Sequence record: PQ301181
Source: Escherichia phage EP02SG
Length of the DNA: 64,000 bases
Reading direction: 5' to 3' (one strand)
In this document: positions 1 through 57,109 of the stretch, piece by piece
Numbering within the stretch: position 1 is the stretch's first letter
Layout: every line of letters begins with the position of its first letter
Translations under genes and position numbers: made by a program
Notes under the pieces: model-generated
Told to the model about the DNA's origin: nothing
What the model saw: only the letters and a program-made list of their open reading frames with translations
The model's database searches: none

Positions 1-1839
<1,839 letters not shown>

Positions 1840-1866: not shown

Positions 1867-3849
1867 ATGGCACTTCTCTCTCCGGGCGTTGAGCTCAAAG
1901 AAACTACCGTACAGAGTACTGTAGTTAATAACTCCACTGGTACTGCTGCCCTGGCTGGAAAATTCCAATGGGGACCTGCATTCCAGATTAAACAAATCAC
2001 TGATGAAGTTGCATTAGTTGATATGTTTGGTACTCCTAATACGGATACAGCAGATTATTTCATGTCTGCTATGAACTTCCTTCAATATGGTAATGACCTT
2101 CGTGTTGTACGCGCAGTTGATCGTGATACTGCTAAGAACTCATCTCCTGTAGCAGGCAATATTGAATTCACAATCTCTGCTGCTGGTAGTAACTATGCAG
2201 TTGGTGATAAAATTATCGTTAAGTATTTGACCGAAACTGTTGAAGCAGATGGTTATGTCACTTCAGTTGATGTCGATGGTAAAATTCTTAACATTTATAT
2301 CCCAACCGGTAAAATTATTGCTCGTGCAAAAGAAATTAATGAATATCCGGCATTGGGTTCTAATTGGACCGCCGAAGTTGCCAGTTCTTCTTCTGGACTT
2401 TCTGGCGTTATTACAATTGGTTCTATCGTAACCGATTCGGGTATTCTGTTAACTGAAGTTGAAACTTCTGAAGAAGCTATTACTTCTCTAACTTTCCAAG
2501 AATCTATTAAAAAATATGGCGTTCCAGGCGTAGTTGCTCTTTATCCTGGTGAACTTGGTGACCAGCTCGAAATTGAAATCGTATCTAAAGCAGACTATGA
2601 CAAAGGTGCTTCAGCCCAGTTAAAAATTTATCCTGATGGTGGTACTCGTGCATCTACTGCTAAAGCAGTGTTTGGATATGGCCCGCAAACTGATGACCAA
2701 TATGCAATTATCGTTCGTCGTAACGATGCTGTAGTTCAGAGCGTAATTCTTTCTACTAAGCGCGGTGAACGCGATATTTATGGTAGTAATATCTTTATTG
2801 ATGATTTCTTTGCTAAAGGCGCAAGCAATTATATTTTCGCTACTGCACAAGGTTGGCCAAAAGGTTTCTCTGGCGTAATCAAACTGGGTGGCGGCTTATC
2901 ATCTAATGAAACGGTTGACGCTGGTGATTTAATGGAAGCTTGGGATTTGTTTGCTGACCGTGAATCTGTTAATGCGCAGTTGTTTATTGCCGGTTCTTGT
3001 GCAGGTGAATCTTTAGAAGTTGCTTCTACAGTTCAGAAACATGTTGTAGCAATTGGTGATTCTCGCCAAGATTGTTTGGTTCTTTGCTCACCGCCACGTG
3101 CAACCATAGTCGGTATTCCTGTTAATCGTGCAGTTGATAATCTGGTTGATTGGCGTACTGCGTCAGGAACTTACACTGATAATAACTTTAATGTAAGTTC
3201 TACTTACGCTGCTATTGACGGTAACTATAAATATCAATATGACAAATATAATGATGTGAATCGCTGGGTTCCATTAGCTGCTGATATTGCTGGACTTTGT
3301 GCTCGCACAGACAATATTTCTCAGCCTTGGATGTCTCCAGCCGGTTATAACCGTGGTCAAATTCTTAACGTTATTAAGCTTGCAATAGAAACTCGTCAAC
3401 CGCAGCGTGATCGTTTGTATCAGGAAGCTATTAACCCTGTTACTGGTACCGGTGGTGATGGGTATGTTCTGTACGGTGATAAAACTGCCACTTCTGTTCC
3501 TTCACCATTTGACCGTATTAACGTTCGTCGTTTGTTCAATATGGTTAAAACGAACATTGGTTCAGCATCTAAATATCGCCTGTTTGAATTGAACAACGCA
3601 TTTACCCGTTCTTCTTTCCGTACAGAGACTTCTCAATATCTACAGGGTATTAAAGCTCTTGGTGGTGTATATAACTTTAAAGTTGTTTGTGATACTACCA
3701 ATAACACCCCAGCAGTTATCGACCGTAATGAATTTGTAGCTACTTTCTACTTACAACCTGCCCGCTCGATAAATTATATTACGTTGAACTTTGTAGCAAC
3801 AGCAACGGGTGCCGATTTCGACGAACTAATTGGTGCTGTAGGTGCCTAA
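1867..3849 (+). CDS. 18: Tail sheath protein (gp18)
   Basis: 660-aa ORF, T4 gp18 is ~659 aa; AGAGG RBS; TATAAATA late promoter upstream. Confidence 0.95.
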   Translation: MALLSPGVELKETTVQSTVVNNSTGTAALAGKFQWGPAFQIKQITDEVALVDMFGTPNTDTADYFMSAMNFLQYGNDLRVVRAVDRDTAKNSSPVAGNIEFTISAAGSNYAVGDKIIVKYLTETVEADGYVTSVDVDGKILNIYIPTGKIIARAKEINEYPALGSNWTAEVASSSSGLSGVITIGSIVTDSGILLTEVETSEEAITSLTFQESIKKYGVPGVVALYPGELGDQLEIEIVSKADYDKGASAQLKIYPDGGTRASTAKAVFGYGPQTDDQYAIIVRRNDAVVQSVILSTKRGERDIYGSNIFIDDFFAKGASNYIFATAQGWPKGFSGVIKLGGGLSSNETVDAGDLMEAWDLFADRESVNAQLFIAGSCAGESLEVASTVQKHVVAIGDSRQDCLVLCSPPRATIVGIPVNRAVDNLVDWRTASGTYTDNNFNVSSTYAAIDGNYKYQYDKYNDVNRWVPLAADIAGLCARTDNISQPWMSPAGYNRGQILNVIKLAIETRQPQRDRLYQEAINPVTGTGGDGYVLYGDKTATSVPSPFDRINVRRLFNMVKTNIGSASKYRLFELNNAFTRSSFRTETSQYLQGIKALGGVYNFKVVCDTTNNTPAVIDRNEFVATFYLQPARSINYITLNFVATATGADFDELIGAVGA

Positions 3850-3862
3850 TAAGACGCCTGAT

Positions 3863-3880
3863 GGGCTATTTCGGTAGCCC
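3863..3880 (+). other. RNA hairpin with UUCG loop after gene 18 (no U-tract)
   Basis: GGGCTAT-TTCG-GTAGCCC directly abutting the gene 19 late promoter. Confidence 0.5.
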
Positions 3881-3881
3881 A

Positions 3882-3889
3882 TATAAATA
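3882..3889 (+). promoter_or_regulatory. Late promoter TATAAATA for gene 19
   Basis: Exact TATAAATA immediately after the hairpin that follows gene 18. Confidence 0.65.
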
Positions 3890-3961
3890 TACTATATCGT
3901 TTAAAAATTAATTCTATGGGCCTCCGGTTAATCCTAAGCCCATATTACTACAGAGGCTAAT

Positions 3962-4453
3962 ATGTTTGTAGATGACGTAACTCGTGCCTTCGAATCAGGT
4001 GATTTCGCTCGCCCTAACCTGTTCGAAGTAGAAATCTCTTATCTTGGGCAAAACTTTAGCTTCCAGTGTCGTGCTACGGCTCTTCCTGCTGCGATTGTTG
4101 AAAAGGTTCCTGTTTCTTATATGAACCGTAAAATTAACGTGGCTGGTGATCGTACATTCGATGATTGGACTATTACGGTAATGAACGATGATGCTCATAG
4201 CATTCGTCAGAAATTTGTTGATTGGCAAGGTATTGCAGCAGGACAAGGTAATGAAATTACCGGTGGAAAACCTGCTGAATATAAAAAGACTGCTATCGTT
4301 CGTCAATTTGCTCGTGATGCTAAAACGGTCACTAAAGAAGTTGAAATTGTCGGCTTGTGGCCTACTAACGTTGGTGAAGTATCTCTTGACTGGGACAGCA
4401 ATAACGAGATTGAAACGTTCGAAGTAACTCTTGCTCTTGATTGGTGGGAATAA
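3962..4453 (+). CDS. 19: Tail tube protein (gp19)
   Basis: 163-aa ORF, same length as T4 gp19; position after gene 18; late promoter upstream. Confidence 0.93.
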   Translation: MFVDDVTRAFESGDFARPNLFEVEISYLGQNFSFQCRATALPAAIVEKVPVSYMNRKINVAGDRTFDDWTITVMNDDAHSIRQKFVDWQGIAAGQGNEITGGKPAEYKKTAIVRQFARDAKTVTKEVEIVGLWPTNVGEVSLDWDSNNEIETFEVTLALDWWE

Positions 4454-8268: not shown

Positions 8269-9837
8269 ATGACTACTATCAAAACTAAAGCTCAGCTCGT
8301 AGACAAATGGAAAGAACTGCTGGAAGGTGAAGGCCTGCCGGAAATCGCTAATAGCAAGCAGGCTATTATCGCTAAAATCTTCGAAAACCAGGAAAAAGAT
8401 TTCGAAGTATCCCCTGAATATAAAGACGAGAAAATCGCTCAGGCATTTGGTTCTTTCTTGACCGAAGCTGAAATTGGTGGTGACCATGGTTATAATGCTC
8501 AGAACATCGCAGCAGGTCAAACCTCTGGTGCAGTAACCCAAATTGGGCCGGCAGTTATGGGTATGGTTCGTCGTGCTATTCCTAATCTGATCGCTTTTGA
8601 TATTTGTGGTGTTCAGCCTATGAACAGCCCGACCGGTCAGGTATTTGCTCTCCGTGCAGTATATGGTAAAGACCCTATCGCTGCTGGCGCTAAAGAAGCT
8701 TTCCATCCGATGTATGCCCCAGACGCGATGTTCTCTGGTCAGGGTGCTGCTAAGAAATTCCCAGCTCTAGCTGCTGACACTACTACTGTTGTAGGTGATA
8801 TCTATACTCACTTCTTCCAAGAAACTGGTACTGTATATCTGCAAGCTTCTGCTATCGTAACACTTGATTCTGGTGCAACTGATGCAGCTAAATTAGATGC
8901 AGAAGTTAAGAAACAAATGGAAGCTGGTGCACTGGTAGAAATCGCTGAAGGTATGGCTACTTCTATCGCTGAACTCCAGGAAGGTTTCAACGGTTCTACC
9001 GATAACCCATGGAATGAAATGGGCTTCCGTATCGATAAACAAGTTATTGAAGCTAAATCTCGCCAGCTGAAAGCTGCTTACTCTATCGAATTAGCACAAG
9101 ACCTCCGTGCAGTACACGGTATGGATGCTGATGCTGAACTGAGCGGTATTCTGGCTACAGAAATTATGCTAGAAATCAACCGTGAAGTTGTTGATTGGAT
9201 TAACTACTCAGCACAGGTTGGTAAATCTGGTATGACCCTGACTCCGGGTTCTAAAGCTGGTGTATTTGACTTCCAGGACCCGATTGATATCCGTGGTGCT
9301 CGTTGGGCCGGTGAAAGCTTTAAATCTCTGTTGTTCCAGATTGATAAAGAAGCAGTTGAAATTGCTCGTCAAACCGGTCGTGGTGAAGGTAACTTCATTA
9401 TCGCTTCCCGTAACGTAGTTAACGTACTGGCTTCAGTTGATACTGGTATTTCTTATGCTGCACAGGGTCTGGCTTCTGGTTTTAATACCGACACTACTAA
9501 GTCCGTATTTGCCGGTGTACTTGGTGGTAAATACCGCGTATACATCGACCAGTATGCTAAACAGGATTACTTCACCGTTGGTTACAAAGGCGCTAACGAA
9601 ATGGATGCAGGTATTTACTATGCTCCTTACGTTGCACTTACCCCACTGCGTGGTTCCGATCCTAAGAACTTCCAGCCGGTAATGGGCTTTAAAACTCGTT
9701 ACGGTATCGGTGTTAACCCGTTTGCTGAAAGTTCCCTGCAGGCTCCAGGTGCTCGCATCCAGTCCGGTATGCCGTCTATCCTGAACAGCCTTGGTAAGAA
9801 CGCTTACTTCCGCCGTGTATATGTAAAAGGCATCTAA
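8269..9837 (+). CDS. 23: Major capsid protein (gp23)
   Basis: 522-aa ORF nearly identical over long stretches to T4 gp23 as recalled (e.g. GLPEIANSKQAIIAKIFENQEKDF, NFQPVMGFKTRYGIG). Confidence 0.97.
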   Translation: MTTIKTKAQLVDKWKELLEGEGLPEIANSKQAIIAKIFENQEKDFEVSPEYKDEKIAQAFGSFLTEAEIGGDHGYNAQNIAAGQTSGAVTQIGPAVMGMVRRAIPNLIAFDICGVQPMNSPTGQVFALRAVYGKDPIAAGAKEAFHPMYAPDAMFSGQGAAKKFPALAADTTTVVGDIYTHFFQETGTVYLQASAIVTLDSGATDAAKLDAEVKKQMEAGALVEIAEGMATSIAELQEGFNGSTDNPWNEMGFRIDKQVIEAKSRQLKAAYSIELAQDLRAVHGMDADAELSGILATEIMLEINREVVDWINYSAQVGKSGMTLTPGSKAGVFDFQDPIDIRGARWAGESFKSLLFQIDKEAVEIARQTGRGEGNFIIASRNVVNVLASVDTGISYAAQGLASGFNTDTTKSVFAGVLGGKYRVYIDQYAKQDYFTVGYKGANEMDAGIYYAPYVALTPLRGSDPKNFQPVMGFKTRYGIGVNPFAESSLQAPGARIQSGMPSILNSLGKNAYFRRVYVKGI

Positions 9838-9861
9838 TCTTAATTGATTAAATCTTATTTT

Positions 9862-9888
9862 GGGAGACTTCGGTCTCCCATTTTTGGT
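9862..9888 (+). terminator. Intrinsic terminator after gene 23 (UUCG tetraloop hairpin plus U-tract)
   Basis: GGGAGAC-TTCG-GTCTCCC followed by ATTTTTGGTTTT. Confidence 0.8.
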
Positions 9889-9889
9889 T

Positions 9890-10159
9890 TTATTTCTGTG
9901 TAATTTCGATGTAAGTTTTCAAAATATTTTGCCAATTAGGCATACCTTCTTGGACATATGCTAGAGAACCGTCTTTGTTTTTGAATGATGCAAGTTTATC
10001 AGTGGCCCAATAACCTTTAGCTCGAGCTTCAGAATCAACTTTCATCCATACTTTGTTGAAGGCATTACCATTAACTTTTGCACCATATTTTTCTACTAAC
10101 TTAACTGCTTCAGCTTCTAGAACTTTTAAAGTATCTCGTAAGAAACGTGCTTTAGTCAT
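9890..10159 (-). CDS. Hypothetical protein (89 aa), early accessory gene between genes 23 and 24
   Basis: ATG-initiated ORF on the opposite strand to the flanking late genes; own sigma70-like promoter upstream and UUCG hairpin downstream; no motif recognised. Confidence 0.55.
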   Translation of the reverse strand: MTKARFLRDTLKVLEAEAVKLVEKYGAKVNGNAFNKVWMKVDSEARAKGYWATDKLASFKNKDGSLAYVQEGMPNWQNILKTYIEITQK

Positions 10160-10189
10160 TTTGTTTACTCCTCTGTAGTTGATAAGTCT

Positions 10190-10219
10190 ATAGTATCACA
10201 TACCAAATACGTTGTAAAC
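10190..10219 (-). promoter_or_regulatory. sigma70-like early promoter for the 89-aa ORF
   Basis: Minus strand reads GTTTACA - 17 nt - TACTAT, ~30 nt upstream of the ORF start at 10159. Confidence 0.6.
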
Positions 10220-10225
10220 AATCTT

Positions 10226-10233
10226 TATAAATA
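10226..10233 (+). promoter_or_regulatory. Late promoter TATAAATA for gene 24
   Basis: Exact TATAAATA ~28 nt upstream of the gene 24 ATG. Confidence 0.65.
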
Positions 10234-10260
10234 ATCTATATCACATAAGGAAAAAATGCA

Positions 10261-32938: not shown

Positions 32939-32962
32939 ACAAAAGGGAGACCGAAGTCTCCC
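32939..32962 (-). terminator. Terminator after the small basic ORF (minus strand)
   Basis: GGGAGAC-CGAA-GTCTCCC preceded by AAAA on the plus strand; identical 18-mer to three other sites. Confidence 0.7.
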
Positions 32963-48754: not shown

Positions 48755-48779
48755 CTCAAAAGGGAGACCGAAGTCTCCC
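48755..48779 (-). terminator. Terminator after gene 32 (minus strand)
   Basis: GGGAGAC-CGAA-GTCTCCC preceded by AAAA on the plus strand. Confidence 0.75.
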
Positions 48780-57085: not shown

Positions 57086-57109
57086 GGGAGACTTCGGTCT
57101 CCCATTTTT
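57086..57109 (+). terminator. Terminator after gene 35
   Basis: GGGAGAC-TTCG-GTCTCCC followed by ATTTTTG. Confidence 0.8.

Follow-up and report, generated by a model that had tools for sequence, protein, structure and literature searches.

Morons of temperate phages are extra genes that sit between conserved genes and have their own promoter and terminator. T4-type early promoters serve the unmodified host RNA polymerase as soon as infection begins and fall silent when the polymerase becomes modified. Of the 57 early promoters predicted in RB69, thirteen precede novel ORFs (Nolan et al. 2006, PMC1524935), and segD is the one T4 endonuclease gene that lies antisense to its neighbours, with no segD-specific promoter found (Edgell et al. 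2010, PMC2988022).

The locus described here comes from Escherichia phage EP02SG (sequence record PQ301181), of which 64,000 nucleotides were analysed; we refer to this whole stretch as the window. It belongs to a Mosigvirus (an RB69-like coliphage) and is 99.8 per cent identical to HX01 and JS09. Two large ORFs on the plus strand are separated by a gap of 423 bp (9838-10260), which has 99.8 per cent identity to Escherichia phages HX01, JS09, DCP548, and PNJ-6 and is at least 95 per cent identical in about 140 Mosigvirus records. The flanking ORFs are genes 23 and 24, and rnlB (an RNA ligase gene) follows gene 24 on the minus strand. An original prediction, made from the sequence, had placed an antisense ORF of eighty-nine codons between genes 23 and 24, and an ORF with the N-terminus it quoted is present there. 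The features of this slot, with the evidence for each in parentheses, are as follows.

8269..9837, plus strand: gene 23, major capsid protein, the upstream flank of the slot (ORF list and orthologous-region annotation)
9861..9880, plus strand: intrinsic terminator of gene 23, a hairpin (9862-9879) and U-run (terminator scan, folding)
9890..10159, stop included, minus strand: 89-aa ORF, a PHROG 6003 member (ORF list and PHROG profile match)
10168..10173, minus strand: Shine-Dalgarno sequence GAGGAG, 8 nt before the ATG (direct sequence reading)
10190..10219, minus strand: T4-type early (host sigma-70) promoter (pattern scan, phylogenetic footprint, SA79RD annotation, RB69 prediction)
10226..10233, plus strand: late promoter of gene 24, TATAAATA (sequence; SA79RD annotation; RB69 prediction Pl:109573, PMC1524935)
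10261..11544, plus strand: gene 24, capsid vertex protein, the downstream flank of the slot (ORF list and orthologous-region annotation)

The ORF is preceded by a -35 element, GTTTACA, at 10213-10219, a spacer of 17 nt, and a -10 element, TACTAT, at 10190-10195, with TG at the extended -10 position; the full extended -10 is TGATACTAT at 10190-10198 on the minus strand. Transcription would start near 10183. A generic sigma-70 scan of the region found no more sites than chance (three versus 3.1 expected), so the promoter is unproven by that scan alone, and the call is carried by a more specific pattern count and by the footprint among relatives. The T4-early-specific pattern GTTTAC-N12-16-TGNTANNAT occurs at ten sites in the 64-kb window, versus 0.05 expected from shuffled sequences, and all ten are on the minus strand. 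These sites start at 10190, 25533, 32436, 32879, 36436, 39968, 41153, 48702, 51998, and 62495, a list that may serve as a quick guide to the early transcription units of the window. In an upstream alignment of seven diverged T4-like lineages, the -35 (T.TAC), the extended -10 (TG.TA..AT), and the late-promoter octamer are invariant and the spacer is scrambled. All T4-like relatives have a GGAG-type ribosome-binding site at the equivalent position. The sequence thus has each of the features that define a T4-type early promoter, namely a GTTTAC -35, a spacer of about 17 nt, an extended -10 of the form TGnTAnnAT, and a gene on the early strand downstream. The original prediction had called a sigma70-like early promoter at 10190-10219, and its coordinates proved exact.

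It had also named a late promoter for gene 24, and the octamer TATAAATA does lie ahead of that gene. The octamer is invariant among all relatives aligned. Only 6 nt separate it from the early -35, and the two promoters stand back to back; the A/T-rich late-promoter sequence would occupy the place of the early promoter's UP element. None of these elements is new as such. The unit is already known, since the ORF is annotated in GenBank and the SA79RD record annotates the early promoter, the late promoter, and the ORF. The early promoter at the orthologous site of RB69 was predicted in 2006 (Pe:109605, HMM score 29.9; Nolan et al., PMC1524935, additional file 3).

The ORF is a real protein-coding gene under purifying selection, given its low dN/dS, the confident fold shared by alleles that are 31 per cent identical, and a PHROG match that extends across the family. 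A tblastn search found it in 239 phage records. In 120 of these it is 90-99 per cent identical to the window ORF (116 at 95-99 per cent and four at 90-95 per cent), and in the other 119 identity is below 60 per cent. Among the matches listed, the group at 90 per cent or more consists of Mosigvirus-type phages of Escherichia and Shigella, and the group below 60 per cent lies at 26-38 per cent. Some 230 phage records, from two genera, have the ORF intact, and intact copies also occur in unrelated phages. Estimates of dN/dS (Nei-Gojobori) come from informative pairs whose synonymous sites are near saturation: 0.057 for JS10 versus LF82-3, 0.10 for JS10 versus the L014 locus, 0.117 for the window versus L013, and 0.168 for the window versus L008.

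The window protein matches the PHROG 6003 profile with E = 1.7e-44, residues 1-89 aligning to positions 1-90 of a 90-position profile. Each of thirteen diverse homologues also matches this family, to which no function has been assigned. AlphaFold2, run with an alignment of thirteen sequences, gave a mean pLDDT of 89.5 for the window protein. The predicted topology is a helix (residues 3-25), a second helix (31-48), a beta hairpin (56-70), and a third helix (76-88), and the same topology was predicted for the divergent allele (31 per cent identity) with a pLDDT of 92.9. Invariant residues include K3, F6, L11, L14, an N30-G31-N32-x-x-N35 patch at the start of helix 2, A45, and Q70. The window protein has a pI of 9.6 and is predicted to be basic and soluble. 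Family members are 84-90 aa long and have neither cysteine nor a hydrophobic segment; twelve of the thirteen have a pI of 9.2-9.9 (8.0 in the remaining one).

Pfam returned only DUF4859, below the cut-off and in two of the thirteen members, and no GIY-YIG match. Searches of NCBIfam, PADLOC, and PDB sequences gave scattered weak matches in one or two members, none of them consistent. The profile-library and structure searches recovered no sequence or fold relative with a known function and no named family, the libraries used not being anti-defence catalogues. An HMM search run without filters over 1.84 billion representative proteins yielded about eight genuine clusters, all of 84-90 aa. Three long matches from that search (P0021-P0023) were rejected as repeat-protein artefacts built from many weak stretches, and a fourth (P0024) as a chimeric fragment. 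All public records name the product 'hypothetical protein'. One 90-aa homologue (P0006, on a 173-kb metagenomic contig) carries the JGI label 'NADPH-dependent curcumin reductase CurA', evidently a mis-annotation. A literature search for the locus tags and the PHROG identifier found nothing. The protein had originally been described as having no recognisable motif, and this agrees with the Pfam, NCBIfam, PADLOC, and PDB results. Homology and structure prediction, proposed at the same time, led to an uncharacterised family, PHROG 6003, and to a confident AlphaFold model without a known relative; as modelled, the fold is apparently novel.

Outside the T4-like phages, homologues were found in Acinetobacter phage ABPH49 and in two metagenomic contigs (L010 and L011). 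There they sit in long arrays of small co-directional ORFs without known function, as early gene regions typically do. Each homologue is preceded by a conserved CCTATTAT stretch, which we read as a putative -10 of its own. No conserved neighbour of known function was found at these loci, and no other gene that they have in common with the window. The three proteins are about 60 per cent identical, and their leaders share a GC-rich stretch, GGCAGGCAATAC(C/A)GCCAGCCAC, between the CCTATTAT box and the ribosome-binding site. This stretch may be a regulatory leader element and is located as follows.

L004, about 2950-2990: GC-rich leader stretch
L010, about 3950-3990: GC-rich leader stretch
L011, about 3950-3990: GC-rich leader stretch

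In T4-like genomes (JS10, four metagenomic lineages, and LF82-3) the ORF is always antisense between genes 23 and 24. A scan of IMG/VR returned only six loci, all on T4-like contigs of 155-172 kb. Mapping presence and absence across T4-like genomes, as the original prediction had suggested, revealed four states of the slot, the sort of variability that accessory genes typically show. T2 and many Tequatrovirus have an empty slot, with an 83-bp gap and no early promoter. It holds an endonuclease gene without the ORF in T4 and RB18 (segD) and in Moonvirus NM4.3 (a related gene). The ORF stands without an endonuclease gene in the window and in Dhakavirus. Both genes are present in LF82-3, F2, ATK48, AV114, and IME341, where the ORF is followed after 3 nt by a gene for a 219-aa endonuclease that is 57 per cent identical to T4 SegD. 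In its own promoter, its place between conserved genes, and its presence or absence among close relatives, the small gene resembles a moron-like cassette. The expectation that T4 carries a seg gene at this position was correct, and T4 segD is likewise antisense. The further suggestion that the small gene replaces seg holds insofar as T4 segD occupies the same slot, but in about thirty-five relatives the ORF and a segD-like endonuclease gene occur together. Downstream of the slot, Dhakavirus-type genomes also have a tandem pair of gene 24 paralogues (L002 (JS10), 333-2899; L008, 1337-3901).

Sequence comparisons point to movement of the ORF between genera. From gene 24 across the promoter as far as the ribosome-binding site, the DNA of LF82-3, a Mosigvirus, does not differ from the window, and precisely at the start codon it changes to the Dhakavirus-type ORF allele. 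We compared positions 3001-3930 of the LF82-3 locus (L003) with that of the Dhakavirus IME341 (L018) and with window positions 9780-10160. Identity between LF82-3 and IME341 is 90-98 per cent over the ORF and the 5' two-thirds of the endonuclease gene, and 60-80 per cent in the flanks. From this island of high identity within diverged flanks we conclude that the small gene and the endonuclease gene move together, the former as flanking cargo. The ORF is also widespread without the endonuclease gene, and the endonuclease gene also occurs without the ORF. In the last 27 nt of gene 23, nine synonymous differences separate endonuclease-plus from endonuclease-minus Mosigvirus; they may mark the end of a co-conversion tract or reflect target-site immunity.

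Ahead of T4 segD, the upstream alignment also contains a candidate promoter, ATTTACA-17-TATTAT with an upstream TG, from which transcription would start about 7 nt downstream of TGATATTAT. T4 segD (upstream region: L005, KJ477684, about 1660-1740, minus strand) and the endonuclease gene of Citrobacter phage NM4.3 (upstream region: L007, 1628-1705) share with the small ORF an upstream architecture that consists of a TATTTATA octamer, (A/G)TTTAC, 17 nt, TGATAT(T/A)AT, and a similar leader. The candidate T4 promoter may be of use to T4 specialists, as the 2010 review (PMC2988022) reported none.

Several readings compete with that of an early accessory gene, and the evidence favours none of them. 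The ORF might be a working part of a SegD-type homing cassette, serving the endonuclease as helper, immunity factor, or translational leader, and the genomes that carry only the ORF would have lost the endonuclease. Such a role would suit the LF82-3-type Mosigvirus and IME341, in which the two genes are co-oriented behind one promoter, as well as the movement of both genes together between genera and the homologous promoter and 5' leader in front of T4 segD and the Moonvirus endonuclease gene. We nevertheless consider it unlikely. Most carriers have no endonuclease gene (239 records have the ORF versus thirty-eight with an LF82-3-type endonuclease at 80 per cent identity or more), T4 and NM4.3 have an endonuclease without the ORF, and the homologues outside T4-like phages have no endonuclease neighbour. 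The window itself contains no SegD-like sequence: T4 SegD and the LF82-3 and NM4.3 endonucleases gave no significant tblastn match anywhere in it. Searched against 9838-10260, the best of these three queries reached E = 0.41, and we reject the idea, raised at the outset as a possible refutation, that the ORF is a fragment of a degraded seg gene.

On the 3' side of the ORF, 9 nt beyond its stop codon, lies the GC-rich hairpin GGGAGAC-UUCG-GUCUCCC (9862-9879). Its folding z-score is -4.1 to -4.6, and its folding energy is -16.8 kcal/mol on the plus strand versus -13.5 kcal/mol on the minus strand. The plus strand has the UUCG loop and a U-run, and the terminator scan called the hairpin on that strand only. 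Read on the ORF strand, the hairpin has a CGAA loop and the tail AAAAUAAGAUUU; it is present there but has no U-run, and the scan made no call for an intrinsic terminator on the minus strand. The identical 18-mer, GGGAGACTTCGGTCTCCC, occurs four times in the window where none is expected (9862-9879, plus; 32945-32962, minus; 48762-48779, minus; 57086-57103, plus). All four copies are in the UUCG orientation, directly behind a gene on the same strand, and are followed by a U-run. The 18-mer hairpin is thus a standard terminator module that the phage reuses, and the copy at 9862-9879 belongs to gene 23. It is conserved among relatives, with a compensatory variant in L014 and T4, and the annotators of SA79RD label it bidirectional. 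A search of Rfam gave only sub-threshold chance matches on the hairpin and no structured RNA. As the sole candidate for a 3' boundary or stabiliser of the antisense early transcript, the hairpin may slow or stabilise that transcript.

These results modify two points of the original prediction. A UUCG hairpin does lie at the 3' end of the ORF at 9862-9879, but it is not a dedicated terminator of the ORF, being that of gene 23 with its U-run on the plus strand. The promoter, ribosome-binding site, and ORF are all on the early strand within a late region, as expected for a self-contained early cassette, but with no terminator called on the ORF strand the cassette is at most putatively self-contained at its 3' end.

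The same arrangement would permit a role at the level of RNA or of the promoter. The transcript could act as an anti-late antisense RNA running into gene 23, or polymerase at the early promoter could occupy the gene 24 late promoter, either of which would keep the capsid genes silent early and make the peptide secondary. The early -35 is 6 nt from the divergent TATAAATA of gene 24, read-through into antisense gene 23 is plausible on a strand that has neither a U-run nor a terminator call, and the promoter is kept where the cargo differs, as in T4 segD. We think this explanation improbable: the coding sequence is under clear purifying selection and encodes a confidently predicted fold, T2-type phages are viable without promoter or cassette, and in other phages no homologue runs antisense to a capsid gene.

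Very improbable, in our view, is a head-associated protein, for example an internal protein injected with the DNA like IPI-III of T4. In its favour are the position between two capsid genes, the small, basic product, and weak matches to phrog_8765 ('internal virion protein'), with E = 0.022 for the window protein and a best value of 0.0015 among the two of thirteen members that matched. However, the gene has an early promoter on the early strand, and no late TATAAATA precedes the ORF on its own strand. Residues 3-25 are predicted to form a well-packed helix, and the (L/I)-x-E motif of the gp21 type is not conserved in the family alignment. Nor do the homologues in small-ORF arrays outside T4-like phages have a recognisable structural gene nearby. 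The specific identification as a T4 internal head protein of the IPI-III type was rejected on the N-terminal motif, the packed helix, and the early type of the only promoter.

The gene is dispensable. In the RB69 reference (L016, NC_004928, 8211-8633, orthologous to window 9838-10260) it is frameshifted twice, with one nucleotide inserted (+1) near codon 20 and one deleted (-1) near codon 70. It is annotated there as two tiny ORFs, RB69ORF188c and 189c, and was therefore never recognised in RB69 as a single gene. Either the gene has truly decayed in the type strain, or the frameshifts are errors of early sequencing. Partial gene calls were also found in mogra (the C-terminal 51 aa) and 310Ecol104PP (64 aa, out of frame after residue 43). 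Together with the absence of the gene from T2 and T4, the RB69 frameshifts and these partial copies mark it as non-essential under laboratory conditions, though selected overall. The recurrence of frameshifts in cultured isolates may mean that its benefit is small or conditional. That the ORF is spurious or decaying, a functionless remnant of an insert or of a seg gene, is largely refuted: its truncation in a few isolates, the RB69 frameshifts, and its absence from T2 and T4 are outweighed by a dN/dS well below 1, by intact copies over two genera and in unrelated phages, and by a confident predicted fold without similarity to SegD-type proteins.

We prefer to explain the locus as an early transcription unit in its own right, encoding a non-essential accessory protein, probably one that binds a host or phage macromolecule, and taken as a whole we hold this to be somewhat better than an even bet. 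Its two parts differ in strength. That this is the gene of an early accessory protein is very likely. That the protein is a binder or a counter-defence factor is a tentative suggestion.

Under this preferred reading, unmodified host sigma-70 RNA polymerase would start near 10183 from the early promoter in the first minutes of infection, and the 89-aa protein would be made from a short leader with a strong GAGGAG site. On reaching the gene 23 terminator hairpin from the wrong side, the transcript would be partly stopped, be stabilised, or read on antisense to gene 23. At the late switch, as expected from T4 biology, the early promoter would be turned off and the adjacent, opposite TATAAATA promoter would drive gene 24. 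The product would be a small, basic, cysteine-free, and soluble alpha/beta domain without enzyme-like features. It seems too small and featureless for an enzyme, which makes a binder more likely, and it might bind nucleic acid or an acidic protein and act stoichiometrically as a host-takeover or counter-defence factor. The gene itself would pass from one T4-like genus to another by recombination within the 23-24 gap, at times carried along as cargo that flanks a SegD-like homing endonuclease gene. In this scheme we infer the timing of expression, the 3' end of the transcript, and both the binding mode and the target of the protein.

A bolder hypothesis, and a doubtful one, is that PHROG 6003 is an early effector with a new fold that disables a specific host function or defence system, and that its two alleles are specificity variants, co-converted between Mosigvirus and Dhakavirus as cargo of the SegD-like endonuclease.

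The cassette is ordinary in kind and already annotated, and what novelty is left lies in the function of PHROG 6003 and in its apparently novel fold. It adds one more uncharacterised early accessory gene of T-even-type phages to the candidates for host-takeover and counter-defence screens, and a convenient one, being a compact single-gene unit whose confident predicted fold has no known relative. Natural genetic controls are available in the empty slot, the frameshifted copies, the two divergent alleles, and the genomes with or without the homing endonuclease gene. The 23-24 gap is also a clear natural example of an accessory gene travelling between genera with a SegD-like homing endonuclease gene, which may likewise interest T4 specialists.

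Among known systems, the morons of temperate phages resemble this unit in being extra genes with their own promoter between conserved structural genes, variably present and on the strand opposite to their neighbours. The difference is that the phage carrying the 89-aa gene is strictly lytic, with no prophage expression, and that the gene shows no dedicated terminator, its hairpin being that of gene 23. The novel early ORFs of T4-related phages, described for RB69 (PMC1524935), are the closest class; they are alike in their promoter class (a GTTTAC -35 with an extended -10), in lying on the early strand, and in being small, uncharacterised, non-essential, and variable among relatives, whereas the 89-aa gene is isolated in a block of late head genes and not part of a large early hyperplastic cluster. 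T4 segD, the nearest analogue by position, occupies the same slot, antisense between the gene 23 hairpin and the gene 24 late promoter, and the promoter-like sequence and leader upstream of it are homologous to those of the ORF. The proteins are unrelated, SegD having 223 aa versus eighty-nine for the product described here, in which there is no GIY-YIG similarity; even so, some phages hold both genes in tandem.
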